DNA of 64,000 nucleotides, taken from Podarcis pityusensis. Lineage: Eukaryota. Shown piece by piece: positions 30,401 through 58,150 of the stretch. Below the pieces are notes generated by a model. It worked only from the letters and a program-made list of their open reading frames with translations. It searched no databases and was not told where the DNA came from. Position numbers and translations under genes: made by a program. Positions within the stretch are counted from its first letter, which is position 1. Every line of letters begins with the position of its first letter. The DNA is taken from NCBI GenBank assembly GCA_964106645.2, contig OZ067051.1, one strand, 5' to 3'.

Positions 30401-31494
30401 GATGCCACTACTGAGAAAGCCTTTCCTTGTTCCCTATAACCTCACTTCTCGCAGTGAGGGAACCGCCGAAGGCCCTCAGCGCTAGATTTCAGTGTCCAGG
30501 CTGAACAATGGGAGTGGAGACACTCCTTCAGGTACAGAGGGCCAAGGCCGCTTAGAGCTTTAAAGGTCAGCACCAGCACTTTGATTTTTGTTTGAAAACG
30601 TACTGGGAGCCAATGTAGGTATTTCAGGATCAGTGCGTATAGTCCCAGCGGCCGCTCCTGGTCACCAGTCCAGCTGCTGCATTCTGGATTAGTTGTAGTT
30701 TCCGAAATGTAGTTTTGGAAATCTGAAGCAGCGCACAAATCATGTAAATAAAAGAAACTAATCTCAACCAACCAAGTTCTCCAGGTGTCTAGGGATGAAT
30801 ATACACACACACCCTGCAAGTAGCAGGAAGCCCAAAAAGAGGTGCACACTGACTCTAGCAGTAGCCGAGGGGGCAGCAGGATCATGCCCATGCTGGCTTC
30901 CGGCATGGAAAGCCATTCCAGGTGGGGAACCTGAGGCTATTTTCTGCTCTCTTCCAGCGCTGGGCTGGCCTGGCAGAAAAGACCGGTAGCAACGAGGACA
31001 AGGAGATGCCCTGGGACCACAGCAAGGGGGGCGAGGAGGATAAAGCCCCCCCAGCAGGCATTTCCCGGCTTTCCTTCTGCCAGCCGCTGCCAGAGGATGA
31101 GGCCCTGTCCAAAGAGAGCAGTTGCCCCCCGCCTGAGATGCCAGACTATCAACATATGGCCAGCAAACAGAGAGGCCTCGAGGAAGACCTGAAACAGCCA
31201 CAGCCTGAAGCAGAGGCACCCCTTCCCTCTGGGGAAACAGAGCAGGAGAGCTCTTCTTCTTTGCCATGCGAGTGGGGCTTCGCCTTCCAAGAACAGGGCT
31301 CACTGGAGACGGAGACACCTGCCCTCCTCCTCCTCTTTGGCAGCAATGATTACTGCGCCTTGGGAGGTGACCACAGCCAGCCAGGCTCCAGGCCTGCTGC
31401 TGAGCAGCTGCTGCAAAGCATCTCAGCATGGGGGCCGGGCCAGGCTGCAAAGGACTCCCCCCAGGCTGTTCTGGGCCCCACTAGCCATGTCTGA
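24389..31494 (+). CDS. IL9R: Interleukin-9 receptor, 485 aa: join(24389..24470,26131..26254,26912..27099,27424..27572,28337..28514,29027..29141,29783..29867,30958..31494)
   Basis: Phases are compatible (1458 nt). PPFDLQSNMSS (human PPSDLQSNISS), ELAFK...PWEQAQ (human ELAFK...AWEQAQ), QWSPWS, Box1 NIPSPAAYFQPLY, NDYCALG (human NNYCALG). Confidence 0.9.
24904..25145. mobile_element. Tc1/mariner (Tigger-like) MITE, 242 bp
   Basis: ta|cagtggtacctcgggtta ... taacccgaggtaccacta|ta; internal repeats of gcttcaggtta. Confidence 0.88.
25239..25478. mobile_element. Tc1/mariner MITE, 240 bp
   Basis: ta|cagtcaaagctctgtt ... aaccaaggtttggctg|ta. Confidence 0.75.
25780..25955 (+). mobile_element. CR1 3'-end fragment (similar pieces near 34140-34310 + and 61910-62250 -)
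   Basis: gttggccactgtgagaac...ctagatg...catccagc...gttcttatg. Confidence 0.65.
26131..26254 (+). CDS. IL9R: IL9R coding exon 2
   Basis: LSNNSVRCLNNYGSQGRRVNCTWHRRDTILGEGPFHLNFS|gtaagg (C...CxW motif). Confidence 0.88.
26912..27099 (+). CDS. IL9R: IL9R coding exon 3
   Basis: LLGLNSDLICHLSEEALDQFSCSV...FTENDEYSVSL...YEPRLH|gtgagt. Confidence 0.88.
27424..27572 (+). CDS. IL9R: IL9R coding exon 4
   Basis: (I)KCEPPFDLQSNMSSSKCWMQW...WELAFKTTEAPWE|gtaaga. Confidence 0.92.
27981..28271 (+). mobile_element. Sauria SINE flanked by a 108-bp direct duplication (27873-27980 / 28272-28379)
   Basis: cgggtggcactgtgggttaaaccacagagcctagg...gtgcaagtagataaataggtacc...ggacctaatggtcaggg..ccctttacct tail. Confidence 0.88.
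28337..28514 (+). CDS. IL9R: IL9R coding exon 5 (WSXWS)
   Basis: NAGNAG acceptor; QAQNKVWVNKETWVEIEGFEFESGVEYVARIRCKTPDVNMHYRSQWSPWSATTKWKAPP; weak but phase-correct donor gtctgg. Confidence 0.88.
29027..29141 (+). CDS. IL9R: IL9R coding exon 6 (transmembrane)
   Basis: NGQQQHRESHLLKHVFNLLFLCLGILLFLLLVLTIFW(R)|gtatat. Confidence 0.88.
29783..29867 (+). CDS. IL9R: IL9R coding exon 7 (Box1)
   Basis: SKGHCSANIPSPAAYFQPLYLSHSGDFK|gtaaca. Confidence 0.92.
30178..30710 (-). mobile_element. L2-clade LINE 3' fragment
   Basis: Minus strand reads LKYLHWLPVRFQTKIKVLVLTFKALSGLGPLYLKE; AT-rich tail near 30180-30212. Confidence 0.8.
30958..31494 (+). CDS. IL9R: IL9R terminal coding exon
   Basis: ctcttccag|RWAGLAEK...DYQHM...NDYCALGG...PTSHV*. 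Confidence 0.88.
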   Translation, partial: RWAGLAEKTGSNEDKEMPWDHSKGGEEDKAPPAGISRLSFCQPLPEDEALSKESSCPPPEMPDYQHMASKQRGLEEDLKQPQPEAEAPLPSGETEQESSSSLPCEWGFAFQEQGSLETETPALLLLFGSNDYCALGGDHSQPGSRPAAEQLLQSISAWGPGQAAKDSPQAVLGPTSHV

Positions 31495-34949: not shown

Positions 34950-36180
34950 AGCAGGAGGGTCTCATCGCTGCTGAGGCAGGAAGAGAGCAGACGGAGAAGT
35001 CGAGTCCCGGGCCTGAAAGCCTCTTCGCCGCCCTCCGGCTTCCCGACCTCCAGACGAGCCAATGGGAGGAAGGAAGCCACAGGCCAGCTGGCTCCGGGAC
35101 CTCCGCGGGAGGCGTCCCCAGGCAGCCTCTCTATCGTACCGGTTTGCCACCGTCGAAAGAGGGGAGTGGTGCATCACGGGAAGCGGCGGTTGGAGGCGAA
35201 CCAGAGGTGTTGTGGGTAAAGCGAGTGGGCGTGGCGCATTGCTTCACTCCCGCTTCCCGCGGAGCCGGCTGGTCAGCTGACCTGCTCCTCTTTCTACTCG
35301 CCCCCCGCCCTCCGCCCGGCTTCTTTGGCGCAAGCGCACGACAGTCTCGCGTGAGCCGACGAGACGTGGCTGAGTGCCTCGGCGCCCATCCAGTGCTGAA
35401 GGGAGGCGTGCGGAAGTCCCGCCCTCCCCTAGCGGAAGAGGGCATTGTTGTGGCCGACGTCATTCACGGAGGACGCGGGCGTCCCATTGGGTCGGACTCT
35501 CTGGTTGGAGCGCGGCCGAGTCGTTCGCTCGCTCGCTCGGAGGGCGGGCAGACGGACGAGCAGCCCGCGCCCATGGCCAGCACCGGCAGCCCCCTGGTAA
35601 GCTCCGCGCGGGAGCCGGCGGGGAAGAGGGGAGGAGAGGAGCGGCCGCTTGGCCTGCGCTGCCTTCCGGGAGGCCGCGGCGCGAGCGGGACCTCTGGCGG
35701 AGGGAAGGTGGGGTTCGCCGCTCCCCGACCCCGGATCTCCTCTTGGCCAGGGGCTCTGCAGGCGCCTCGGGGTCAGCCTGGGATCCTGGCCGGAGAGGGG
35801 CGGGGCCCAGGCTACAGCACGGAAGCGAAAGCTGCGGAGGAGCCGGCCGGGCCCTGACCTCCCCCCCCCCCGGTGTTTGGCCTCCCGTCGTCTTACCTGG
35901 ATAAGCAGGCAGGCCTCGGCTAGAGCCTGCCTTGTTTTGCGTAGCGGCGCGGGATCCCCGTGAAGTGAGTGCCCCACTTAGGCGTGGAGGGGCGCGCCCA
36001 TTTGCCCTCGGAATTCCACCTCCTTTCCCCGCCGGCAACGGAGAGGGCAGCTCGTCTTCCGGTGTGCATTGGGTGTTGGCGCCTCCGACTGTCGCGGGCG
36101 ATACGGAGGTTGCGATTTCGGCTACATTCCGGGCTTAGCATTAGCGATAGAGCAGTGTGTCGCCTTAGCCCACCGTTTTG
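34950..36180. promoter_or_regulatory. CpG island / PDPK1 promoter
   Basis: Dense CpG, GC boxes, ETS GCGGAAGT at ~35410 and inverted CCAAT at ~35486, surrounding exon 1. Confidence 0.85.
35573..35596 (+). CDS. PDPK1: PDPK1 exon 1
   Basis: cccATGg; MASTGSPL|gtaagc (human MARTTSQL). Confidence 0.88.
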
Positions 36181-39100
36181 GGGGCCCTGCTAGTCCTGAG
36201 GGATTGAAAAGCTGAATCTTCCAGTGGTCAAAGAAACTTCTTATATATTAGTTAAGGAGCAATTCTGTAAGGCAGACGTCATGCAAAGGATGCCCAGTTG
36301 ATTTACAGCTGAGGTGAGATCTAATACGCTCAGTCCTTAGGAGGTGCTGCTGTAGAGCAAATTCTTTATTTTTTCAATATATGTGTAGCATTTGATGCTT
36401 GTTGTCAGAGGCTTTCATTTTCAGCCTGTTCTACTTCAAATTTGTTTCACATCCTGATTTAAAGTTCTTGAGTAATTGCCGTTCTTCCCAGTAGTTTCGT
36501 TGACACAGTTGGCCACCGTCATGCTGTTCATGTGTCATTTAGTAAAAAGTGCCCATTGTTCTGTGGCACCAACTCAACCTATTCCCACTTACTTACAAAT
36601 ACATATCAGCTGGTGAAAACTGGCACAGGACAGGCAGCTACCCGGTCCTCACATTATGTCACATGTGCTTGAGGAAGTGTAGATGTTGTTTCCATATGAC
36701 CTCTTGTTATCAGCAGAATTAAAAATGCAAATGCCAGCCATGAGTACATATGCCATAGGAGGCATAGAAGACTCCACATTGTATTGAATCAAATAATGAC
36801 TCATCCAACCAATAATTCCCGGAGCTGGGCAACAGTAGTTGAATGGAACAGAGCCTGGCATTTTTATACATGCAAACCACAAGTTCTAGAACACTTATGG
36901 CCTTTTCTGCAGAATTGTGTGACTTTATGCCACCATCAGAGTTCAAACAGGTGTGTAGCAAGGTGTCACAGGTGTGCCTGTGCCCTTTGCACTTTCATCA
37001 GCTTACTTGACTTTTCTTAGTACTGTAGAATGACTTAAATGTGAAAATGATTCCAGATTTCTTGTGCAGTTTGTGTGTGCATCTGCCTAGCATCATGTAT
37101 TGTGTGCAAACAGTGTACACTTGCTTATTCTGTGTTCCCCAGAGATAGGCAGATGTAACACCATCCTAGATCAAACTTCTTGAGCCTGATATCCTCCACA
37201 TATTTTTATTACAATTCCCATTAGCAGTACCCAGCATGGCTGTGCTGAAATCATAGTCCAAGGCATCAGAAGGGCACCAGGTTGAGGAAGGCTGTCTTAG
37301 CTTCTTGGATTATGGCATCCCACATGGTGGGTCTTCTGAGTCCAGGGATGGCTCTGCCTTGAAATTTGTAGGCCCTGTTAAGTTCCATACTGAAGAAGAA
37401 GCTCCATTGTATATTGCTAGGGCATGAATTATATATGTCATTGCAAGTAATTATCAGGGGGCACTTTGCCTGCTCTTTGCTGTGAGCATAAAATACTGCA
37501 CTTGCCAAAATGTTATCATTCTGCTACAAAGCAAACTTGCATTTCACTGGTGATCCTAGACTTCTCAAGGCTGGATGTATGGAGTGGCAGCTGCTGCTGA
37601 ACTGTATACCATCTATCTGGCTACAGAACTCATTACCTGGGCAAGTCGACCACATGCTGTGACTCCTGAGAGAGCAGGAGGTTCTTTATTTATTATGTTT
37701 ATTTTTAATTATCTGCTATGTGTATTTTCTCTTGGAACACAATTGTTCTAAATATAAAGCATAATAAAATAGTCATCCCATTAAAATCACATTAAACCTC
37801 TTAAAACTAAACAAAACAGTTAAAACAGAAGTGATTAATAAAAGCAACTCTAGTTAATTAAAAACAGTTAGCTTCATGCCATATTGATGCTTTTTTATCT
37901 GTGGTTTATTGCTGATATATAGCCTTTGACACAATGAAAATAATGGGCTGGACTCAAAATTCAGGTGGGGGTTGAAACCAGCATAAAATTTCAGTTGCTA
38001 GGTAAGTGTAACAAAGGTGTGTGCATTTTAAAAATCATGTTAGAAGTAATAAGCTACAGAAGTAGAGGAACTGTTATCTAGGCAATAGTATTTCTATTCA
38101 GTGTGTGTCAGCAGGATTTTTATAACACTTTCAAACCTACGCATACCTGGCCTGGGTACTTTTCTTTGGCATTGGCAAGAGCAAGTGGGACATAGTAAGG
38201 CAGCCATTAAAGCCATGGCCCATTACAAGTTAGCTCATTTATTCAGTCTGGAACACTATTTTTACTCTGAAACTGGATTCATACCTAGATGGCAGACCTT
38301 GATAAGCTGTTCAGAGGAAATTGAAATGGCGATGTCAAATGGATAGGAATGTTTCAGCCAGTCTGATGTGGAAACTTGGGTTTTCTGAGGAGTCTTGACA
38401 TCTTATAAACCTCTCTCACCTGAAGAAATAGCAACACTGAAGGAAGGAAAGAATTAATCATTCATTTAATTTCCTTAAAGTTAAGAGTCTAAAGGAAAGT
38501 CTGAAAGTTGAACTTGTTGATAATGAAAAGCTTCCTGATATAAATGGGGAAGCTGCTTGACTTTGGATATTTGAATACCTCTCAATGTAAACAATACTGA
38601 ATTAGATGGACCAATTAGCCTGACTTGGTATCAGTAGTTTCCTGTGTTTCGATGAAAAAACAGGCACCAAGCAATCAGTGAAGCACAATTCCATACATTC
38701 ACCATAGCAGTCCTCAATATGCTAAGCTTCCAGTCAAAAACATTACTGTTTCTCATAATTATTATTAGAATGTAGTTGGAGGCTACTATTCTACTGTAAG
38801 ATGACAGAATGACCAGAGGTCCTAGGAGCACATTGTAATAAAATAGTGGAGGAATTGTAAGTTAGTAGGTAGTGTACCTGCTTTGCATGCAGAAGGTCCT
38901 ATCTTGAGTCTCTGGTGTCTTTGGTTATGTAAGGATATTTTAAAGCCACAAATTGCAGAATTATTATTTCATTTGAGTAAGCTGCTCTTTTCACTGGTTT
39001 GCGTGTCAAATATTAAAACGCCAAATCGTTTCAGACTGTTTCAGTTTCTCTCTAGCTAATTGGATGTGTGTGTTAGACTTACCAAGTTCTTCAGGCAGCT

Positions 39101-42100
39101 TCCGAACTTTGTGGGTTGGATTCCTTTAGCCTTCAGATCTCTGAAGACCTGCTGTGATCTGAAAGACTTTGGCTTTTATAGATTCAAGTATAGGCTGGGA
39201 CCTTAGGGTGAAGGGTGTGTAATTAATAATAGTAATTATTTGTGAAGCAGTAAGGTGGCAACTCTTGACTCTTGAAATTCAGGTCATGAGGTGGCCATTT
39301 TTGTGTGTTTTGTACATGCTTGATCTATGGAATCACAGCAATGTAGCATAGTTGCCATGATCGCCAGTAGGTGCCTGTAGCCCCCCCTTTTTTGTGGGGA
39401 GCAGCACTCCTGAACTTTGGCATATTTCCAACTAGTATACGGGGATGTGTGGCTAATAGATTGCAAGCTGCAGCATCATGTACATTCTTTCTCTTTCCTT
39501 CAGTACGATGCTGTTCCAATCCAGTCCAGCGTGGTTTTATGTTCCTGCCCATCACCATCAATGGTGAGGAACCAGGCAGATCCCAGCCCTTCACCTGTTG
39601 CTGCTCCCTGTGGCAGCAGGCAGGGACTGAGCATGGAGGGCACAACGGCTGAGCCAAGGGGGAGTGAAAAATCCTTGCAGCAACCTCCACAGCCTCGAAA
39701 GAAACGCCCAGAGGACTTTAACTTTGTCAAGATTCTGGGCGAAGGGTCTTTCTCAACAGTGAGTATCTACTGCAACTGTGGGTTCTGGGAGTGTCATGGC
39801 AGAAGCCAGCCGTTTGGCCTTTGTGTATCATTCAGACAGTTCTCTCCCCCTCCCCCCAGCATTCTCTAAGGAAAGCACTTTGCCCACCAGCTTGCCCGGA
39901 GGAAGGTTCTACTTGGCTCTGCAGGAGGTCAGAGAAATAATGTTCACAGCTGTTGGCTGTTATGGTACTTTTTGTCCTCTTGTGGCCCCTGCAGTCTCAC
40001 ACCAGACTTTTAGTGAGATGAGGTTACCACCTCTGTCTGTCCTCATTGAACCCCTGCTGTTGTGCACATGTTCCATTGACAGGTTTTGACTCTCCACCCC
40101 TGTGATGTGTCATTGCTTGCTATAGCTGCCCCCCCCCAAAAAAAATCAAAAACAAAAAACCTCTTGGGTACATTAGGATTTCTGGATTTTATGACTTCTT
40201 ACAAAATGATGGTTTACCCCTTCCCTTCTGGACATATAGGACCAGATTCACCTAACCAAGCACACTAGCAAAGGCCAGTGCAGTGACTCCCACTCCCCCA
40301 CCCCCCCGAAAAAAATCTGCCCTAGGAAGTTGGGAGAACCCCCCAGAACAGTTCCTACATGTTGTCTTTAGGGAGTGCTGGGAATGTGTATGAGACTGGC
40401 TGATGTAACTGGTGTGGATAGAGCAATGGTCCCTTGGGGCCCTGGGCTCCAATGGGCGGAATTCCCCTTTTCCACTCACCCCCTCAGTAGGTTGGAGACC
40501 TTTTGTGGGATCTTAGTTGCGTGCAAAACATAAGGCAGTTCTTATTTCCCATTTAACAGGTCTTCTTGGCCAGAGAATTGTCTACCTCCAGAGAATATGC
40601 CAGTGAGTAACCCTTTCTTCATTAGGGTGTGGATTTTAGATGGATGATGTCCTGTCCTCATAATGGAGCCAAAGGAAGTCTAGGTTACGCCTGCTGCTGC
40701 TTTTGTGGGAAGCTGCTCTCTAAGTGTAGCTTCATAGTCAAGCAGAGCAGATGAGTTTGCAGCTTCACTGTGTATTTCCCAAGTGTGTTGTAACTTATTT
40801 GTCTTTTTAAAAGTTAAAATTCTGGAGAAGCGCCACATCATAAAAGAGGGCAAGGTGCCGTGCGTGAATAGGGAGAAAGATATCATGTCTTGCCTGGATC
40901 ACCCTTTCTTTGTCAATCTCTACTTCACCTTTCAGGATGATGAGAAGCTCTGTATCCTTCTGGATGGAAATATTTCATGGTGATATTTGTTGGGATAATG
41001 TGTGTGGAAAAAAGAACCATGTTTCTTCATTTGCTAACTCAATGATGTTTTCCAAATAGTTGTACCAGAATTCATAGGCAGGATACAAATGTGAAAAATC
41101 TTGACTCTTGTAAACCTGGCAGAGGACGAATCTTGGGCCCCCCATGGGTATGACAGTGCATTAAGGCACCCCACTCAGCCTCCCTCTCCCACTTTCTATT
41201 TTTTAATTGATATTTTTTGTTTGATGAGATTGCCTAGTTTTTGTGGTAGGAGGAGGTTTGTTGTTGTTTTTACTGTGTTTTATTTGTCTCTAGGTGTCTG
41301 TGCTTTGCCTTTTAGGTGTATGGGGCTGTTTCTGAATACCACCAGTTTTTCTTCTGTTGAATGTGTATGTTGTGGTGTCCACAAGTTTCTTTTATCTCTA
41401 AATGTGCCCCTTGTCCCAAAATGATTGGAGACTAAGTTAACCGCTGCACCATATTGGCCCGAATATAAGCTGCACACTTAAAATTCAAGGTTTATTTACA
41501 GGTGCTGGTGCCGGCTGCCCCCCGTTCAGGGCGGTAGTGCCAGGAGGCAGGCATGGAGCGCGCTCAGAGCCCAGCACCAGCACCGGCTTGGGTAGCTGAG
41601 TGCCTGCCTCTGAGCTGGTTGGCGGTACGCGTGCTCCCTAGCTTCGTGGGGGGGGGGGAGGCGTGCGCAGGCTAACCAGCTAGGGAACATGCGCAGGCTA
41701 ACCAGCTAGGGAGTGTGTGCACCGCCAACCAGCTGGGAGGCTGCGCATGCTCCCTAGCTGCTTGGCGGGGGGGGCAGTGGCGTGCCCACCTCCCTGCTGG
41801 TTGGTGGTGCGTACGCTCCACCCCCACCGCCAACCAGCTGGGAAGTGGGCATGCCTCTCCCCCCCCATCAAGCAGCTAGGGAGCGCACACTGCCAACTAG
41901 CTGGGAGGTGCGCCACTCCCCCCCCCCCCGCCAAACATGCGCTCCCCAGCTGCTTTCAGCAGCATATGGTAAAAAAATCACCAATATAAGCCGTACTTTT
42001 AACTTTTCAGGGTCCGAAATTGGGAAAAAAGTGTGGCTTATATTCTGGCCAATACGGTAAATCTTTGGCTGTGTGCAGAGTCCAGCCTTCTCTTTCCAAG

Positions 42101-42472
42101 CACATCGCCACCTATCCCTTCTAACATTGCCTCAGATTATCTGCATTTGTGTTTTAGGGTCCAGAGATTCACAGTATAAATTATCCTTAACTTAGTGTTC
42201 AGATTTTGGTCTTAGCTATGCCAAAAATGGAGAGCTTCTAAAATACATCCGGAAGATTGGCTCATTTGATGAGACATGTACTAGGTTTTATACTGCTGAA
42301 ATTGTGTCTGCATTAGAGTACTTGCACGGAAAGGGAATCATTCACAGGTAATGTAATGAATTCAAATCCATCTATTCTTGGTTCTTGTTGCTGTTGTCAT
42401 AGTTACTGTTTGTTGCCCTCCTGATAGATTTCTCCTGGTGGCTCTAAACTCAAAAGTTCCCATAGCAAGCAG

Positions 42473-42508
<36 letters not shown>

Positions 42509-45500
42509 TGTCTTAGGTACCTTTGTTGAGACTTCCTGGCTTTCCTGCATTCCTCACCTGTGGTGACACCAGCCTAGTTAATTTGGCACAAGGCATTGGC
42601 TGCCTTGGAGTACAAAGTATCCAGCAATGGATGGGGATTTTGAACAGTTGAAATCTTTCTTTCCCTCCCTCTGTCGCCTTTTGCCTTGGTTTTTTTTTTT
42701 TTGTAGAGGAGAGGGACGTCCCATTCTGCCAGGTCGCTAGCAGAGTAAATGTAGCGCCTCTTCCGTACTGTTTGCCTGCCTGCAGTAGAAGGCAGAAGAG
42801 AAGAACTCAGCATGATCTAACATTCAGATTTGCTCCATGTCTCCCTGCCGCCTAGTCCCCTCCTAATCATTTGGGAAGCAGCTCCCAATACCAGGCAGAG
42901 GAGCAGGTAGGAATCTACTTCAAACCTACCAGAACAGGCAGAGACAGTAAGGGCCAATGGACAGGCTTAATTTCCTAGATAGCTGCTGTTACTTTAGAAG
43001 CCTGGGGGAGAATCAGCTTTCCATGGTTAGGGCCTTACATTGACAACTCGGGATTTCCTCAGGGGACACAAATAGTTGTTGAGGGCATGACTCTGTGCAT
43101 GCATGGCTCATTCCCAGCTGTGCCTTTTGCAGGGACCTGAAGCCAGAGAACATTTTGCTCAGCGGAGACATGCACATTCAGATTACAGACTTTGGGACAG
43201 CAAAAGTATTGTCTGCAGACAGCAAGCGAGGTGCGTGCAATTTCTCAACCTGTCAACGACTAAAGCAACTTTCTGCAGTTTCAAATTCCTTAAAACTGAC
43301 CACAGTATCCGATGCTACGTCTCAATGGGGTTTATGACGGTTCTTTACTGAGTAAAGGCAAAATGGCTATACCGCAGGAGATGACATCAGAGAGGAAACC
43401 TGCGGGGTTACTAAAATGGGGCAGCTGAAATCAGGTGATAGTGGGGTGCCCATGGGGTGAAATATTGCTTGGTAATGCTTAGTGTTGAGGGGGCGGGGAG
43501 CGTTTGAAAAACAATAGTCATTATGTAATATTGGATGCCTACAAATATAGTTAAATAAAAGCTGATGAAATTTGAATTGCACAACAAAAATGAAAGCATT
43601 GTTTCCAAATGAACACATCCAAGCCTTCATGAGGACCTTGTAAGGACATTTTTAATGATTAAATGCTTACTTGCATCTTGGTTTCTTCAGCACGGGCGAA
43701 CTCCTTTGTTGGGACAGCACAGTATGTGTCTCCAGAGCTGTTAACAGAGAAGTCTGCCTGCAAAAGGTGAGTTACATACGTTGCCTTTGTAGAGGGGTTG
43801 TATGACTGAGAGAGAGATCTTCAAGGCAAATGGGTGAGGCCTATTTCCATTAGGGTGTACCCCATTCTTGTGCCTCAGTGCCTCGTGCATAATCAACACT
43901 GAAACATTTTAAACAGCATGACAATGGCTCTTAGGATTGCTTTTGTCTATTTTTCTGCAACACGAATAGTTCATTAACCCTTGGATTTAACATAACATAC
44001 CAGCAAAACATGAGACAAGACGTTCTAAGCATTGTCATCATGTTTTCTTGCTGCAATCTCTTGCCGCTTTACTTGGTTTGTACATTAAACAAGACAGAGA
44101 ATTAGAAAGCTCTTTGTGGCCATTTAATTTATTTTTATTTTTTTAAGCACCTATTCAGCTTGGGATCATCTTCGAAGGGCTGTATTGGGACTTAGGCCTG
44201 GGCGATATATCAATATATTGCCCAGGACTGGTCCTTCCTCCAGCAGGCACTGCTAACAGAGGGACTCGGGAGCAGTGGCAGTTTCACCGGCGATATACCA
44301 CTGAGTGAAGCCGACATCGCGGTCTGCTCCTCATACCAGTCCCGGGCAATATATCAGTATATCACCCAGCCCTCATACAACGGAGAGGGAGAAACAAGCT
44401 CTATTGGCGAGGCGCCAATACAGCTGTTTCCTCCCTATGCATCTTTAAACTGCTTGGCTGAGGAGTGTGTAGCTACCCTTTCCTCAGTTGAGCAGTTAAA
44501 GGAGCACCCAGGACAAGTTGCATTGTCCTAACCCACGACTCTGGGTGAAACTGCCTCAGCACTCGAGGTGAGAGCTGGGGCAGTTTCACCCAGTGTTTTG
44601 CGGGGAGAGGACAATGCATCTTGTTTTTTCAGCATCGCAGTATGTCACCAAACTGCTATGTTTGGCTTGCGATACACTGCGTTTTTGAAAAGCTGATATC
44701 GCTCAGCCCTATTGGGACCTTGCTGAAGTCTCTCTTCTGCTGTTTCCATCCTTCCTGTGGGAGCCTAACCCAAGATGAGGAAATACGTAGATCTGGTTCA
44801 GGAAGTGTACAGTGGCAGCTTCTGCATCAGATCCTTCGGAAACGCCCAGGGATAAACACCTTTTCTTCAAGGTGCCTTTACCAGGCATTCCAAGTAAATT
44901 AGAGTCTGATACTCCAGGGGAATTTGCAGCTCTGCCTGAAAGGGAATCTGTTGTATGCTTTTGTTGTGGGTGCCTGAACTAGGAGATGGTGACATTGGAT
45001 ATGCCCACAGTGCTAACTCTTCTGCTTTGCCTTCTCATCTTTTTGCCTGTCTTCATGATGCAGTTCGGATCTGTGGGCTCTTGGCTGCATCGTATACCAG
45101 CTTGTAGCAGGATTACCACCATTCAGAGCCGGGTAAGACTTTGGAGCACACCAGTGCCAGACTTCCCACCAAGTTAGTGTTTGCCCGTGTACCCATAGGA
45201 TAGTATAGTTTCAACCTTGAAGTTGACTTATAGGAAATGTTTGCATAGATGTAACTATACTTTTCCCCATCCTTTTTGCAGAAATGAATATCTCATATTC
45301 CAGAAGATAATCAAATTGGAGTATGAATTCCCAGAGAAGTTCTTTCCGAAGGCAAAAGATCTCGTAGAAAAGCTTTTGGTAAATGAATTGTATTGTCAAA
45401 AGTTTCCAATGCATGCTAGAAGCCTCCAGTCAGATAACTTGCACAAAATGTGGTACTCATTGCTGCTGTTCTACCCCAGCCGGTGTTTTGGCCCTCTAGG

Positions 45501-48500
45501 CTTCAGAGTCCCACCCCCCCCAACTGTTACCCCTTTGACTTGTTCCCTGTCCCTCCTGCTTTTCCACAAAGCATCTTCGGGGCCTTGTTTCTTAGTCCCC
45601 ACCGCCTTCCCATGGGATTTTCTGCCCTTTCGCTTCCCAGCCTCACCCCGACCCACAGATATACTCCTCTATACCTTGTGTTGAGGTATTAATTTCCAGC
45701 TAAGGCTCCCCTACTTTCCCTCTCTTCATGGAACTAGACTGTTAGCTTTGTTCCCAAACTAGCTGGAACTTTTCAGTCAGTTGGTGTTCAAGGTTTTATC
45801 ACCACAAGAACCATATGATACAGATGTCAGCCTCAAGGCCTGCAACCAGCATTCCTTTCCTTCCTGCCTGTCTCCTTCCATCTCTTTTCTCTTTTAATTG
45901 GCCACTTGCCTCCCACTTGCTCCAGGAAGTGGAGCAAAACAAGTTGACTTCATGACCAGTTTCTTGAGATGCTCTCTGTCCTGTTGCTTTATGCCAGTTA
46001 AGCCTATACAAGCCTTTGTTTCACGGGTTATTGCAAAAGCCCCTTGTGAATCACCATGAAGGGGTGCCTGGAGAAGAAATCTCAATTGTCCTCCTCCTTC
46101 ATGGAGTCTCGCTTCTACTAGGTACATCAAAGGTCCCATATTAACAGATTGTCCGCAGAGGTGGACTGCCTGAGTCACCAAGATCTGAAATGACAGGGAG
46201 TGGAGCCCGAGACGCCCCCTGAGTCTTTCCAGGGAAAATGTAACTGTGTCTTCACTTAACCAGGTCCAAGATGCCACCAAGAGGTTAGGCTGTGAAGAAA
46301 TGGGAGGATATGAGCCCTTGAAGGCCCACCCCTTTTTCGACTCCATCACCTGGGAGAATCTGCATCTTCAGACACCACCCAAGCTCACTGCATATTTGCC
46401 CGCAATGTCAGAAGATGATGAGGATTGCTATGGAAATGTAAGTGCAGGCTTTGATACTGATGCCAGGGGAGATCAAAGGTTCCTGAAAGGCAGTTTGCCC
46501 TTGTGAGTGCCTCACATCCTTCTCCATCCATCTCAGTAGTCGCAGTAGGAGTGCCCATCTTGATCTACCATGCTCCATAGAGGTCTTTTCAATACCCTTG
46601 CATCCTTCAAGGGAGAAATAGGCCTGTAGTTCTTGCTCTGGTCTAATCCTTGGCTCCTTTGCCACCCTCACTTTCACTTGTAAAGTTCACATGACCAGAG
46701 GGTGAGAGCAGATACTGAGCTGAAAGCAGAGCTCCTTCCCAGCTTCCTCCCTCTCTCGCAGAATTTCTGCATGCAAGTGGAGGGTTAAAGAGTGATACAT
46801 GCATGTACTGTGAGGAGATAATGAAACAAAGCAAGTAAAAGGAAATGTTCTAATTTCCAGCTGGTTAAAAATATGGGATCGCTGGTGAAATTTGTGAAAG
46901 AGATAGAGGCTTTAAAATTTGGAGACGGGGATTTTTCTGATACATAGATTTAATCAATCAAGGCAGGACTATTGATCATTCAGAAATCAGGAGAAATTTG
47001 AATCCAACACCCCCCTTGACTTGAGTGTCTTAACGTAAGATGGGTAATAAAACAAATTATGTAGATAGTGAATCAAGAAATGAGGCTGCAATCCAAGTCC
47101 CCTCATCTGCCATATCGTAGCATGGGTAGCATGGAAGGATAGGGCAGAGATATCCTTCTGCTGTTCAGAGTGGCTTCAGCAGCACTCCTCCAGCACCACT
47201 GAATTTCTCATGCTGCCTGCCAAATGGGGTATTCTGGAGAGGGAGGACTGAACTGGCTCCACTGCTGTCAGCAGTCTCAGGGTGGATTGTAGGGTGGAGC
47301 AAGGGTTTGCTTGTCCCCACATGTGTCCTAGTTGACATGTGCAATGCTGCCCATCACACTCTACTGTGCCTTACCCAGCTTGGGTAAGGATTGCTCTGAG
47401 GAAATTAGCTGATTTGGAGAAATTAGGTAAAACAACCCTTTATTACGATGCAGAGTGATATCCAGTGTCTCAGTGTCATACTCAATAGTAGACCCATTGA
47501 AATCATTCTACTGGAGCCTCTTGATTTAAATTGGCCTCTTATGACTTGCCAATCACCCATAAAATTTAGTTAAATAGCTGCAGAATATAGGTAAAATCAT
47601 TCCGGTGAAAATCTTGGGAAGCCTACTGATTTTCTTAAGGATAACTGGAAAAGAAAATAGAAAAATTCCAGTACAAACATATGCTGGAAGTGTCAACAGG
47701 AGAAGGGAGGTGATTATTATTAATGCTACTATTAAAAAGTGGAAGCAGATCAAGCATTTTACAGTCTATAGATTATGAAACCTCTCTAGGTCCTGTCCTT
47801 ACTAAATTGTGTTGAAGCCTCATGAGACAGAGCATAAGGAATTAGTCCCATTTGTGAATTGAAGCAAGAATGTTTTTAAGCAAAGAAATGGAGAATATCA
47901 CTAACAGCAGAAGTGGCCAGAAAATGAGTGGGATTTTGCCTTGATAGCAAAAGTGATGTACTGAGTAAAATAAAAGATGGCCACACAGTTACCATATTTT
48001 TCCATGTATAAGACGCCCTCATGTATAAGACGATTTTAAAGCCTAAATTAATAAATAAATAATTGCAACATTCTGTGTATAAGGACCCCCCCCCCCCAAA
48101 AAAAGTTAACTTATTTTTTTGGGGGGGGGAAATATAGTCGTATATTGGAAGCTGTTTGTTTTCTTACAGATGAAATGTGTTGCTTTCCTCAAGTATGGGC
48201 TTACAGTGTTTATACAGCGTAAACACATGTACTAGTAGCATTTAAAGAGAGCATGCAGAATAATAAATAAATAATATAACATTGGTTATATCCATTGTTA
48301 GTCACATTCATTGGCACATCAAATTTAGGCCCATTAATGTTACTGGATTCACTCTTGAAGACAACTTGGATATTATGTTGGCAGAAATATTGGTCAGAAG
48401 AAAAGGGTAAGATGCCACATACTTTCCCCCCATTTATTCTGAAAACTGTCTTTCTTGTTTTGATAGTATGACAATCTCCTGAGTCAGTTTGGCTGCCTGC

Positions 48501-50807
48501 AAGTGTCTGGCTCTGCCTCTTCTCAGTCCTTGTCTTCCCCGGAGACGTCCACCCCACAAACCTCAGGCAGCAGCAACAACATAGAGCAATACATTCACAA
48601 CCTCGACAGCAATTCCTTTGAGCTGGACCTCCAGTTCTCTGAAAAGGAGAAAAGGTTACTCTTGGCAAAGCAGGCTGGTGGAAATCCCTGGTAAGCACTG
48701 CGGGGTGTGGGGTTTTTCCCCCATAGAGTGGCTTATGCAAATGTGTGTGCGCGCATGTGCTTGCACTTGCTTTCTCTCCCCCTCCCTCCCCCTCTCTTGA
48801 GTGACGTCTTACTCCACAAATAAAGTTCAGCTTCATCACTCTTGCACCTCACTAACAATGGAGGGTGGCAGAATCTTGGGCTTTAGAAAAGAGGGGAAAA
48901 GGGCCATTTGAATTGGCCAGAGCTTAGAAATGCAGCCAATTTCTGCCATGGGATCTCACCCAGAGCTGACAGTCCCATAAAAGTGCTGCTAGAGACCTTT
49001 TTCCTCTGCATGCTGAGCACAATGCCCTTAGCAGGGAGCGCCCATCTGCCTGCTGGCTACTTTTCCTCCTCTCACTGACACTCTGTCTCTAAAAGCCTGT
49101 AAGTGGATGGCTTGGCAATGAATGATGGATTGATGGAAATAACACAAGGTGATGTTTTCTTCTCAGGCACCAGTTTGTAGAAAATAATCTAATACTGAAA
49201 ATGGGTCCAGTTGACAAACGGAAGGTAAGTCACCTTATCCTGTGCCTCGGATTCATTCTCTAAATGATTGTACTTGTGAGTCTAAAGTACTTGGGGATAT
49301 GAAATAAAAAAACCTGCAGAGTAGTGGAGGAGAAAGAAACATATGCTAAGAGAAACCAAAAGCAGATTATCTAAATGTAGTAGTTTGTGGTGGGGAGTGT
49401 AACCCTGTTTGTTCTCCTTGACCTGCACATTTCATAATTTTATTTGTATGCTCTTCCATGTGTACCAGGTGGTTGGTAATTAGGTAACTAAAAAATTAAA
49501 TGAAAACCAGCGGGGAGGGAGAGAGGCCTTCTAGTGTTTTGCAGAGCCTGCCATATATTTGACTATCTCCCCACTGGGCAGAAGTTGTGGGTGTATCTAG
49601 AGTACAGTGAGCTCCAGGAACAAGTTGGTTCCCAGACCTGGAAACGGCAAAAGAGGCAGAGAGAGTGTTGGATGGGGTCTTCAGGGAGGTCCCACTCCCA
49701 TGATGACAGTTCCCCTGCTGTCATAGGGAATGAGAGTGTTGCCTAGAAGAGAGTTTGAGCTTTGAAGACCTTTCATCATTTGTCCAAAATTTGGTTTGGA
49801 GACTGTTGCAGGAAAGGCAAAAAATATAATAGGTACTTCCCCTTGCTCGTCCTGTGAGCTGGTTGTGCTGCATGTGGTAAAGGTGGAGAGGCAGAGGAAA
49901 CTAGCTTCTCAGAAGATGTTGTGATGATCCCTTTGTGCTCTATAACAAGAGCGTTGAGTCCTAAGCAGTATCCTGTGATGGTGCTAGAATCCTGCCTTTC
50001 TTGACCCTTTCTTTGAAGCTGCTGGCCTGCAGCGCTGGCTAACTCTAAGTGTTGTGTCCTCCTCTGCAGGGGCTCTTTGCTCGCAGGCGTCAGCTGCTGC
50101 TCACTGAAGGGCCACACTTGTACTATGTGGACCCTGTCAACAAAATTCTGAAAGGAGAAATCCCTTGGTCGCTGGAACTCCGGCCGGAAGCCAAGAACTT
50201 CAAGACCTTCTTTGTTCACACAGTAAGTGACCCCTTCCTGCTGACAAGTTCTGACTTCACCGGTCCTGTTCTGTGGGCTCTTGCAGGTGTGGTATTAGCA
50301 GGGCCCATTCAGCTGCCAGTGCTTACTGGGAGGTGCTGGAGGTGTTGAGGAAGGTCTGGAGGTGTTAATTGGCTGTGGGATCCTTCCCCTTTTTTGAAAA
50401 ATGGATCTAGAACTTCCTGAAGTAGCAGCTCCCCAGTGACACAGCTCCACACACTGATGACTCTTGTTCTTTCTCAGGCCAGAGTTGGCTCACACAGCCA
50501 CCCCTGCCTTTTAATAGCTCCTGCCCGTTGTCTGGTTTTTACAGTGGGAGACTTCTGATGTACAAAGTGCTGTGTGCAGCCTTCATCCCCAGGGGAGGGA
50601 GGGGAGGCCCAAGCCCATGCATTGCCTGCTGGCCTTGGTCAGCTTAGTTAGGTTCTTGCTGCAGGAATGAGTAGGCACTAAACCTTTGTTTACTTGTAGC
50701 CTAACAGGACATACTACCTGATGGACCCAAGTGGGAACGCTCATAAATGGTGCAAAAAGATACACGAGGTTTGGCGACACATATACCACCAGAACACTGC
50801 GAAATGA
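35573..50807 (+). CDS. PDPK1: 3-phosphoinositide-dependent protein kinase 1, 553 aa: join(35573..35596,39504..39758,40560..40602,40814..40951,42203..42347,43133..43230,43691..43766,45064..45132,45282..45378,46264..46437,48467..48690,49167..49224,50070..50222,50700..50807)
   Basis: 1662 nt in frame. [31 protein letters not shown] and the PH domain [14 protein letters not shown] are all intact. Confidence 0.97.
39504..39758 (+). CDS. PDPK1: PDPK1 exon 2
   Basis: [21 protein letters not shown]...[21 protein letters not shown]|gtgagt. Confidence 0.96.
40560..40602 (+). CDS. PDPK1: PDPK1 exon 3
   Basis: [14 protein letters not shown]|gtgagt. Confidence 0.95.
40814..40951 (+). CDS. PDPK1: PDPK1 exon 4
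   Basis: (I)[45 protein letters not shown]|gtatcctt. Confidence 0.95.
40952..42202 (+). other. U12-type (minor spliceosome) GT-AG intron, PDPK1 intron 4
   Basis: 5' site GTATCCTT; branch point TCCTTAAC at 42184-42191, about 10 nt before the AG; no polypyrimidine tract. Confidence 0.93.
41449..42057. mobile_element. Non-autonomous Tc2/pogo-like DNA transposon with GC-rich internal repeats
   Basis: TIRs ccatattggcccgaatataagc / gcttatattctggccaatacgg|ta; repeated accagct(a/g)gg(g)a units inside. Confidence 0.8.
42203..42347 (+). CDS. PDPK1: PDPK1 exon 5
   Basis: (Y)[47 protein letters not shown](R). Confidence 0.96.
42465..42507. repeat. (GCAA)n microsatellite
   Basis: About 10 units. Confidence 0.9.
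43133..43230 (+). CDS. PDPK1: PDPK1 exon 6
   Basis: [32 protein letters not shown]|gtgcgt. Confidence 0.96.
43691..43766 (+). CDS. PDPK1: PDPK1 exon 7
   Basis: (A)[24 protein letters not shown]. Confidence 0.96.
44193..44711. mobile_element. Non-autonomous hAT element
   Basis: TIRs taggcctgggcgatat / atatcgctcagcccta; 8-bp TSD ttgggact/ttgggacc. Confidence 0.82.
45064..45132 (+). CDS. PDPK1: PDPK1 exon 8
   Basis: [22 protein letters not shown](G). Confidence 0.96.
45282..45378 (+). CDS. PDPK1: PDPK1 exon 9
   Basis: [32 protein letters not shown]. Confidence 0.96.
46264..46437 (+). CDS. PDPK1: PDPK1 exon 10
   Basis: [25 protein letters not shown]...[10 protein letters not shown]. Confidence 0.96.
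48467..48690 (+). CDS. PDPK1: PDPK1 exon 11
   Basis: [13 protein letters not shown]...[21 protein letters not shown]...GGNP(W). Confidence 0.96.
49167..49224 (+). CDS. PDPK1: PDPK1 exon 12
   Basis: [19 protein letters not shown]. Confidence 0.96.
50070..50222 (+). CDS. PDPK1: PDPK1 exon 13
   Basis: [22 protein letters not shown]...[10 protein letters not shown]. Confidence 0.96.
50700..50807 (+). CDS. PDPK1: PDPK1 exon 14, coding part
   Basis: [35 protein letters not shown]. Candidate distal AATAAA at 54229 and 54384 would give a ~3.5-kb 3' UTR. Confidence 0.95.
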   Translation, partial: PNRTYYLMDPSGNAHKWCKKIHEVWRHIYHQNTAK

Positions 50808-55174: not shown

Positions 55175-56143
55175 GCCATGTATTGTCATATTGTGGCCCA
55201 GAAGTGGCTGCTGGGTCCTGAGTGGGAAAAGAACACACAGGCCCCATTATGCTGCGTTAGAGTAAGGCTTGCAGTGTCAAACATTACTCCCCCCCACAAA
55301 GGTATTTTAAAAGCTGCTTTTTAGGTTTAAGGCTATCCTTTCAAAGAAATGAGGGCTATAATGGCCAACATCAAATCAGTGTATTCATGAGGATGCAGCC
55401 AGTGCTATATCCCCCCAGCAGAGGACATTTCCACCCACCCTGGCAGCAAAACTCCTGCCATGTGTTATTCTGCTAACCGTGAAGCCCCGAGCCAGTCCAG
55501 GCAATGTGAATGTGATCCATTTCTTTTGGGGTTTAGGCCCAACTTTGGCACAAAAACTGCTTTAGTGGCCCTGTATGATGATCTCTGTCAGAAGAGAGAG
55601 GAAATATGCCTCTTCTCGACCTGTCAGCAGCTTTCAATGCTATCAGCCATGGTATCCTTCTGGAGTGGCTGCCCAAGTTAGTGGTGGTTGGCACCACTTT
55701 CTGCATGATCATTTCCAGAGGTGATGCTTGGGGAGTGCTCTTCGGCTCTGTGGAGCCTTCAGTGCGGCGTTCCTCAGGGATCGATTTTATCCCCCATGCT
55801 ACATGAAGCAGCTGAGGGGTTATCTGGAGTTTCGTAGTATGCTCATCAATATGTGGATGACACACAGCTCTACTCCTTTACATCTGCAGGTGAGGCAGTG
55901 GATGTGCTGGATTGTTGTCATGCCTTCGTAATGGCCTGGATGAGAGCCAACAAACTGAAGCTTAATCCTGATAAGAATGAGGCACTGTTAGTGGGCAGTT
56001 CCCTAGATCAGATGGATGGGAGGTTGCCTGCTCTTGAGGGAGTTTTAACTCCCTCTAAAGGAGCTGATGCACAGCTTGAGGGTACTTCTAGATCCATTGC
56101 TGTCACTTGAGGCTCAAGTGGTCTCGGTTGCACAGAGTGCCTT

Positions 56144-57189: not shown

Positions 57190-58150
57190 CCCCGCTTCGC
57201 CCGCAAACTCAGGCAGGGAGAGCACAGCGCTTCCTGCGCGAACGGTCTCCTAGCAGACATAGAGCTCCCCCCCCCCACCCGCCCTCCATCGGCGCGGAAG
57301 AAGAGACCAGGCGAGGCGGAGGTTAGATGATAAAAGCGGCCGGCAGGCAAAGAGTTAATCTGCGCCTCCGCCCCTCATCCCGCTGGCGCACCCAGCAAGC
57401 AGAAGAAGCCCGTAGAAGGGGAGGGGCCGCTCTCCTCCCTCACTTCCGGACGGCAGGGGGGCGGAGCCACATCGCCGCCGCCGCACATGCGCTCTCGGAG
57501 AGCCTGCTGGGACAGCGGCCCGGAGGGGAAGCCTTTCGAGAGCGGACCTTCCGGCGCGCAGCCAGGATGGCGGCGGAGGGCTCCTGCGAGCTGCCGGTGG
57601 TGCCGGCGGCAGGGCTTGGCCTGTCCGGGGCTCCCTCCGCCTCCTGCCGGCGCTGCAGCAGCAGCTCCAGTTCGTCGTCGTCGTCCTTCTCCTCGCCTTC
57701 GTCGTCGTCCTCGTCGTCGTGCGGGGGCTGCCTCGCTCCCCCGGCCCCTCCCGTCGCGGGCGGCGTGCCCGGGAAATGGGTCCGGCTGAACGTGGGCGGC
57801 ACCTGCTTCCTCACCACCCGGCAGACGCTCTGCAGGGACCCCAAAAGCTTCCTTTTCCGCCTCTGCCAGGCCGACCCGGACCTCGACTCCGATAAGGTGA
57901 GGGGGCGCCGCCGCCGCATTCTGCAGGTGCTCAGGGGACAGGCCGGGCGAGGACCCCATAGCTTGGCCGCCCCACCGCGGGCACTAGGCTGGAGGGCCCC
58001 CGCTTTGCTGCCCCGGTTCCTCCTGGAGTGCCGGGCCTCTGCGTGAGAAAGAGCCGCTCAGGCCACCTGTGTCACGGCGCCGTCGTTACCGTGAAAGAGG
58101 CGCCCACCGTCAGGTTCTCGCTCTTTTCTGGTCGGTTACCCATCTCCCGC
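57190..58150. promoter_or_regulatory. CpG island / KCTD5 promoter
   Basis: CpG-dense, with GC boxes, ETS CACTTCCGG at ~57441 and NRF1-like GCACATGCGC at ~57483. Confidence 0.8.
57567..57896 (+). CDS. KCTD5: KCTD5 exon 1
   Basis: aggATGg MAAEGSCEL...DSDK|gtgagg. Confidence 0.93.

Follow-up and report, generated by a model that had tools for sequence, protein, structure and literature searches.

A lineage-wide cluster of substitutions at conserved N-lobe sites in the PDK1 kinase of lacertid lizards, with a predicted effect on its internal switch

PDK1, the product of the PDPK1 gene, is an essential hub of insulin and growth signalling that exists as a single copy, and between sharks and mammals the N-lobe of its kinase domain hardly varies. 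It is therefore of interest to ask why the PDPK1 gene in a 64,000-nucleotide stretch of the lizard Podarcis pityusensis (contig OZ067051.1 of assembly GCA_964106645.2; this whole stretch is referred to below as the window) should encode an N-lobe in which a first-pass annotation listed eleven substitutions, and whether these have, as was then proposed, retuned substrate docking while sparing the PH-dependent activation of AKT. By sequence comparison the lacertid N-lobe cluster is real, lineage-wide and statistically clear, and the literature searches made did not turn up any earlier description of it. The explanation favoured here, with a probability of about 0.5, is that the single lacertid PDK1 gene gained nine changes at conserved N-lobe sites on the stem of the group and kept them, and that these are predicted to have retuned the internal switch of the enzyme (alphaC allostery, hinge closure and the self-docking of the linker and PH domain) with the docking groove still working.

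Relative to human PDK1, represented by PDB chains (for exon 4, and the 2r7b chain for the whole kinase domain), all eleven substitutions (K83N, G85V, V97F, A103S, N122G, Y126C, T128N, R131K, V133I, R136C and K144N) are present at the places assigned to them, spread over exons 2, 3 and 4. Their rarity was judged against 125 non-lacertid sequences, made up of 119 of the best 120 of 187 matches plus six cluster members, a set that includes isoforms and fragments and whose members are not independent. A103S and V133I fall at variable sites (I133 is present in 30/125), so the notable count is nine rather than eleven. The lacertid states at 83, 85, 97, 122, 128, 136 and 144 occur in none of these sequences, K131 occurs in two (Tiliqua and Latimeria), and N122, T128 and K144 are each invariant in all 125; K144N, Y126C, N122G and G85V are the unusual ones among the N-lobe changes. 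The idea that the eleven surround the PIF (PDK1-interacting fragment) and phosphate pockets holds only in part, as R131 alone is a phosphate-pocket residue and the first two strands, or the stretch between them, hold K83, G85, V97 and A103.

The clustering is beyond chance. Among sites conserved in at least 95% of the 125 sequences, 9 of 55 are changed within residues 83-144 versus 1 of 321 elsewhere (Fisher p 1.5e-7), and a scan permutation that allows for the post hoc choice of window yielded the observed count in none of 100,000 trials. With a 90% threshold the figures are 9/56 versus 6/357, and the scan permutation reached the count in 70 of 100,000 trials. The region is almost invariant in vertebrates, as the earlier annotation had held: the nine changed sites are otherwise at least 95% conserved, and 100 of the 125 sequences have no change at all in residues 83-144. 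Five others have 5-11 changes there, in contiguous runs that resemble mis-called exon ends, and these were retained in the count.

The Pkinase domain match (81-328) is followed by PH_3 (446-546), exons 5 and 7 are identical to human chain 2r7b, exon 12 is identical to the fox and jerboa proteins, and the catalytic residues K111, E130, D205 and D223 are kept together with the activation-loop S241. Human PDK1 (2biy, 1h1w, 2r7b; PH domain 1w1d) has the same domain order, catalytic residues and S241, the same PIF-pocket floor and K76/T148/Q150, and the same Y288, linker Y373/Y376/F383, K465 and R472-474; the two enzymes differ at the nine conserved N-lobe sites and Q236R, at D418N, D/E433K and R546I in the PH domain, and at variable sites. 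Four lacertid-only changes outside the N-lobe, Q236R, D418N, E433K and R546I, had not been listed before. The PH domain, previously called intact, is so with respect to the phosphatidylinositol trisphosphate (PIP3)-binding residues K465 and R472-474, but not with respect to D418N, E433K and R546I. Because the PH domain carries these lacertid-only changes of its own, the claim that AKT activation has been spared is not established. In the linker, Y376, D377 and F383 of the NYD and internal hydrophobic motifs (as defined in PMC8986801) are kept. Residue 386 is Leu, a state seen also in Rhineura and geckos. Where the serine-rich linker ends, lacertids have an insertion of two residues that occurs in none of the 11 other sauropsids compared.

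Could such a cluster be an artefact of assembly, a decaying duplicate or the product of GC-biased conversion? All eleven substitutions are common to the Podarcis, Zootoca and Lacerta records, and the protein as a whole differs at no residue from P0121 (records labelled Podarcis muralis and Podarcis), at one from Zootoca vivipara and at three from Lacerta agilis; with an open frame of 553 amino acids and 0-3 differences across three genera, there is neither a broken frame nor continuing divergence. The stretch, whole or in part, is present in 20 sequencing runs of 10 studies, of which four runs were examined. Contigs of X15 and X17, which belong to two studies and are RNA by guess, no run being recorded as RNA, join exons 2-3 (at 39758-40560), 4-5 and 5-6 at GT..AG ends, X15 joins 3-4 as well, and an X15 contig spans exon 4 with no other letters; X2 and X8 carry the exons as continuous DNA. 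The junction by the Q236R codon is visible in contig loose ends at 43230. Among the contig differences listed, the three that fall in exons are all synonymous, and 111 further differences lie beyond those listed. No alternative exon 4 was found by tblastn in the window, and a genome search returned one exon-4 match, one PH_3 locus (via two exon matches), and for exon 5 one full match and five others at 35-62% identity. These searches score the best candidates only and the assembly may be incomplete; among the candidates scored there was no second, canonical PDPK1. Since the substitutions are common to Zootoca and Lacerta, and spliced contigs carry exon 4 unchanged, the changes are neither an assembly error nor those of a relaxed paralog. 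Codon steps are mixed (G/C-to-A/T and A-to-G) and the GC content at third codon positions of exon 4 is an ordinary 0.65 (0.38-0.64 in the other internal exons), which argues against GC-biased conversion. The artefact explanation is thus largely refuted. Two other local explanations were rejected: conversion from a PKC gene, the resemblance being at three positions only, and hitchhiking with nearby immune-type genes, which does not account for the abrupt end of the cluster before exon 5, at a distance of 1.25 kb. That interval is intron 4, whose signals we take to be of the U12 type; it contains an interspersed repeat of very high contig depth.

When the changes arose can be read from a fixed species tree of 20 proteins, from shark to mammals, the topology of which was taken from general knowledge, after masking of the Liasis isoform's out-of-frame tail. 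In residues 76-160 the lacertid stem has 0.130 substitutions per site, which is 27% of the tree and its longest branch (the next being 0.051), versus 0.028 in residues 161-390 of the C-lobe and 0.032 in residues 411-545 of the PH domain. Localised accelerated evolution, as first proposed, is therefore supported at the protein level. The nearest outgroup available, Rhineura floridana (P0054), is 93% identical to the lacertid protein and has I133 and L386 in common with it, but unlike lacertids it has, at each of the nine conserved N-lobe sites, the residue usual in vertebrates; its branch is 0.000 in residues 76-160, 0.009 in the C-lobe and 0.008 in the PH domain. As the three lacertid tips have no change in 76-160 either, the substitutions were fixed between the Rhineura split and the ancestor of the three genera. 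Two skinks, Tiliqua and Lerista, and the coelacanth Latimeria have C126 as lacertids do, and Tiliqua and Latimeria also have K131, but the other seven conserved-site changes are absent from all three, so these are separate, much smaller events. The C126 and K131 pair has three separate vertebrate origins, counting lacertids (P0003, P0124 and P0010 being the records of the skinks and the coelacanth). A burst limited to the N-lobe and to one branch, followed by no change among three genera, counts in favour of a retuned switch.

What such a switch might consist of is suggested by published work on the altered residues. The pair K144-D138 is described as characteristic of the closed, active form (PMC9330272), K144A and K144E are reported to lower PIFtide binding (cited in PMC12101721), and Y126 is reported to relay the allosteric signal and T128 to contact some ligands (review, PMC6327997); Y126C and K144E are listed among mutations that alter activity or modulator response, in a direction not given (PMC12006859). 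In simulations of autoinhibited PDK1 the linker makes the contacts Y126-F383, R131-D371 and K144-D368, and the kinase and PH domains meet at K120-E432 and E121-K435, with R238, K495, E497 and R546 also involved (PMC12101721); E433K is flanked by E432 and K435 and in the simulation faces the loop bearing N122G. It has also been proposed that in one conformer the linker-PH region rests against the small lobe close to alphaB, and that helix 434-443 plays a part (PMC7614687), and the linker NYD and hydrophobic motifs are reported to promote autophosphorylation, with the beta1-beta2 surface in the dimer interface (PMC8986801). The engineered R131K and Y126C are the same substitutions as in lacertids, and K144A/E affect the same position, which is Asn in lacertids; the human mutants are single laboratory changes, whereas wild lacertids carry the changes together and in fixed form.

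On this basis the following sequence may be proposed. K144N would remove the salt bridge to D138, which is associated with the closed and active state, and with Y126C an aromatic contact on alphaC would be gone; the loss of these contacts should in turn weaken closure, the coupling of the PIF pocket to the active site, and the grip of the kinase on its own linker. R131K, T128N, V133I, V97F and Q236R, all states tolerated within the family, could have served as permissive or compensating steps, and E433K and R546I in the PH domain perhaps represent the other side of the same interface, likewise compensating. The outcome would be an active PDK1 with a shifted activation threshold rather than a new substrate set, its groove still accepting normal motifs. 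The unchanged pocket and catalytic residues count for such a retuned switch, as do the published effects at K144 and Y126, the confidence of the N-lobe model and the unchanged motifs of the PKN2 and AKT1 tails described below. In this model, made with AlphaFold from a 126-sequence alignment, the pLDDT (predicted local distance difference test) is 94-98 across residues 71-160, alphaB and alphaC are intact, and the root-mean-square deviation from human 2biy is 1.0 A at 91% identity, which indicates only that the predicted fold is compatible with the substitutions. The two new cysteines, C126 and C136, may add redox sensitivity, as the annotation had suggested, but a disulfide between them is unlikely given that they are 10 residues apart on one predicted helix.

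A number of observations weigh against a retuned switch. The AlphaFold model mostly mirrors its alignment, so that subtle shifts would be beyond its reach, and the K144 and R131K results are known second-hand, from citing papers. According to exchange data the PH N-terminal extension does not belong to the autoinhibitory surface (PMC8986801). The simulated interface does count in favour of a retuned switch in that, of 14 lacertid changes at sites with 90% conservation or more, four are at residues named in it (permutation p 0.0065) and eight lie within two residues of one (p 0.004). This test, however, was made once the list had been seen and on an interface that is itself a simulation, and significance is lost on division, the two measures giving p 0.06 and 0.14 inside the N-lobe and 0.21 and 0.05 outside it. 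The enrichment is a lead. The ‘burst’, moreover, may be slow accumulation, because the stem branch is long and sampling consists of three genera without intermediate subfamilies; a fragment search (24-79 amino acids) for intermediate lacertid states gave six proteins, none with the lacertid pattern, and no further lacertid genera were present in two of three sequence clusters looked up. Finally, apart from C126 and C136, which are missing from the commonest states listed, each of the lacertid states tallied can be found in one or other distant PDK1-like protein, as would be expected if they are tolerated and leave function unaltered.

This last observation is central to the main rival, compensated drift without net effect, in which one mildly harmful change became fixed on a long branch, its neighbours compensated, and the enzyme now behaves like any vertebrate PDK1. 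The distant set consists of 148 representatives, 118 of which passed a filter on K111, E130 and an activation-loop motif, and which are PDK1-like by rank and by that filter. Within it, residue 131 is Lys in the majority (75/118, with Arg in 41), N128 is the commonest state at its position (36/118), residue 97 is aromatic in 36/114, I133 occurs in 22/117, and positions 83, 136 and 236 are variable. The remaining states are scarcer: G122 in 3/118, V85 in 4/111, and Asn at 144 in 7/117, where 91/117 are basic; C126 is found in at most one of 118, where Y126 is found in 82. A strict dependence of K131 on C126, true of three vertebrate lineages, is not general, because Y126 occurs with K131 in 51/118 distant proteins and in amphioxus. 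A divergent PDK1-like protein is present in Monodelphis domestica (P0136), at 63% identity and in its own 50% cluster. Drift is also favoured by a PKC-type kinase of the same genome (L030), presumably PKCeta, which has C, K and I at the positions matching 126, 131 and 133; it is a different gene, unlike PDK1 across the rest of the exon, and the likeness is one of state with no sign of conversion, but it follows that such an alphaC is workable in an AGC kinase. The separate appearance of C126 and K131 in Tiliqua and Latimeria, the unchanged predicted fold, and a lacertid stem that is also somewhat longer than that of Rhineura outside the N-lobe point the same way. Less easily accommodated by drift are the invariance of N122, T128 and K144 in all other vertebrate sequences compared, the functional effects reported for K144 (PMC12101721, PMC9330272), and the spread of the changes over three exons and two structural faces. 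Compensated drift is possible, though less probable than a retuned switch.

The original proposal amounts to a shift in docking selectivity among S6K, SGK, RSK and PKN with AKT activation unaltered. The floor of the PIF pocket is retained, as the annotation had noted for K115, I118, I119, V124 and L155; these residues, V127 and F157 are all identical to human; at the phosphate site K76, T148 and Q150 are as in human, and Lys at 131 keeps the charge. Substrate tails were examined through 23 Pkinase_C matches in the genome. The PKN2 tail is identical to human at 46 of 48 residues with its PIF motif unchanged, the AKT1 tail at 20 of 23 with its motif unchanged, and the tails that we take to be SGK-, PKC- and S6K-like match the usual motif form, the human side of that comparison being likewise assumed. 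RSK and AKT3 motifs were not recovered among these matches, and the tails seen give no sign of co-evolution with the kinase. That R131 and T128 touch pocket ligands (PMC6327997), that K144 mutants bind PIFtide less (PMC12101721), and that nine of the ten changes at the most conserved sites lie in the N-lobe would suit altered selectivity. The same review reports, however, that R131A and R131M abolish activation by a PIF-pocket compound and that R131K keeps it (PMC6327997), and the PH domain is altered too. With the pocket floor, three of the four phosphate-site residues and the motifs seen unchanged, and with K131 the majority state of distant PDK1s, a retuning of substrate docking is improbable, even if K144N could lower docking indirectly (PMC12101721).

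A more far-reaching version of the retuned switch holds that the activation logic of lacertid PDK1 was rewired: N122G, Y126C, R131K and K144N, together with Q236R, E433K and R546I, would loosen self-inhibition, and the resulting Arg-x-Arg-x-x-Ser241 would let AKT, S6K, SGK, RSK or 14-3-3 act on S241. The consensus of AKT, S6K, SGK and RSK likewise has Arg five and three residues before the Ser. This arrangement is not unique to lacertids, R236 and R238 being found together in 14 distant proteins. R238E and S241A are reported among mutations affecting 14-3-3 control (PMC12006859). Such rewiring is doubtful; if true, a whole lizard group would have a feedback-controlled master growth kinase with a different PIP3 dependence.

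Conflict usually shows itself where many changes crowd onto one face of a protein that is fixed elsewhere, and it can be asked whether the N-lobe escaped a pathogen that hijacked PDK1, for example through phosphorylation of S135 or a mimic of the docking motif. Rodent parvoviruses activate PDK1 via phosphorylation of S135 by PKCeta/radixin (PMC4351090), and R136C, V133I and R131K flank this residue. S135 itself is kept, nevertheless, the absence of change in residues 76-160 among the three genera gives no sign of a continuing arms race, and the literature searches made gave no link between PDK1 and any pathogen of lizards. Pathogen escape is therefore very unlikely.

The positions of the features discussed are collected in the table. 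Downstream of PDPK1 a BTB-domain gene, presumably KCTD5, begins with an exon that includes a long run of serines; turtle and bird PDPK1 records include isoform models in which a BTB_2 domain is fused to PDPK1, so the neighbour is as in other sauropsids. Upstream, a single frame without introns, open across both RNA-binding domains and matching residues 6-344 of HTATSF1 (HIV Tat-specific factor 1; E 1e-146), is likely a retrocopy. Three long low-complexity open frames, which we take to resemble the last exons of IL4R-, IL21R- and IL9R-like cytokine receptors, had no Pfam match, and the protein atlas gave no usable match for the first two. A fragment that weakly matches reverse transcriptase (E 0.0008, short of the family cut-off) is probably a remnant of a LINE (long interspersed nuclear element).

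Table. Positions in the window of PDPK1, its lacertid substitutions and neighbouring features; ‘others’ are the non-lacertid sequences aligned at the site.
Feature	Position	Strand	Remarks
PDPK1 gene	35573..50807	+	exon model of 14 coding exons; open frame, 553 amino acids; all introns with GT..AG ends
Exon 2	39504..39758	+	ends in strand beta1 and Gly-rich loop
K83N (AAC), G85V (GTC)	39720..39728	+	strand beta1; N83 in 0/121, V85 in 0/120 others
Exon 3	40560..40602	+	holds V97F, A103S
V97F	40563-40565	+	F97 in 0/123 others
A103S	40581-40583	+	variable site; S103 in 13/123 others
Exon 4	40814..40951	+	alphaB, alphaC, alphaC-beta4 loop; seven substitutions
N122G	40849..40851	+	alphaB-alphaC loop; two base changes away from an Asn codon
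Y126C	40861..40863	+	alphaC; Cys in 4/125 others (Tiliqua, Lerista, Latimeria, one unnamed fragment)
T128N, R131K, V133I	40867..40884	+	alphaC; states common in distant PDK1s
R136C	40891..40893	+	end of alphaC; adjoins phosphosite S135; Cys in 0/125 others
K144N	40915..40917	+	alphaC-beta4 loop; takes away the partner of D138
Intron 4	40952..42202	+	minor-spliceosome-type donor and branch signals; spliced in X15, X17
Interspersed repeat	about 41365-42150		
Q236R	43227..43229	+	activation loop; Arg in 0/115 others; Arg now at -5 and -3 of S241
Two-residue linker insertion	48566-48577	+	
D418N	48599-48601	+	PH N-terminal extension; lacertid-only among sequences aligned there
E433K	48644-48646	+	PH N-terminal extension; lacertid-only among sequences aligned there
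V493I	50145..50147	+	PH domain; also in cartilaginous fishes
R546I	50781..50783	+	PH C-terminal helix; Ile in 0/89 others
HTATSF1-like frame	14381-15472	-	364 amino acids
Low-complexity frames	435-1706; 18603-19535; 30865-31491	+	
Reverse-transcriptase match	55838-56107	+	
BTB_2 exon	57327-58040	+	

No literature was found in the searches made that joins PDPK1, lizards and positive selection, or that names PDPK1 within the reptile TOR network, most subscription papers being outside the search; McGaugh and colleagues reportedly treated the evolution of the insulin/TOR network in reptiles in 2015, and this may cover PDPK1. A viable natural enzyme that combines K144N, Y126C and R131K provides a test of models of allostery and autoinhibition that were built on single mutants and simulations, and lacertid PDK1 shows which alphaC contacts can be lost when the loss is compensated. 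A real effect would point to growth signalling having shifted throughout the lineage in a well-studied family of lizards; should there prove to be no functional effect, the cluster would cleanly illustrate compensated change in a pocket that is a drug target.

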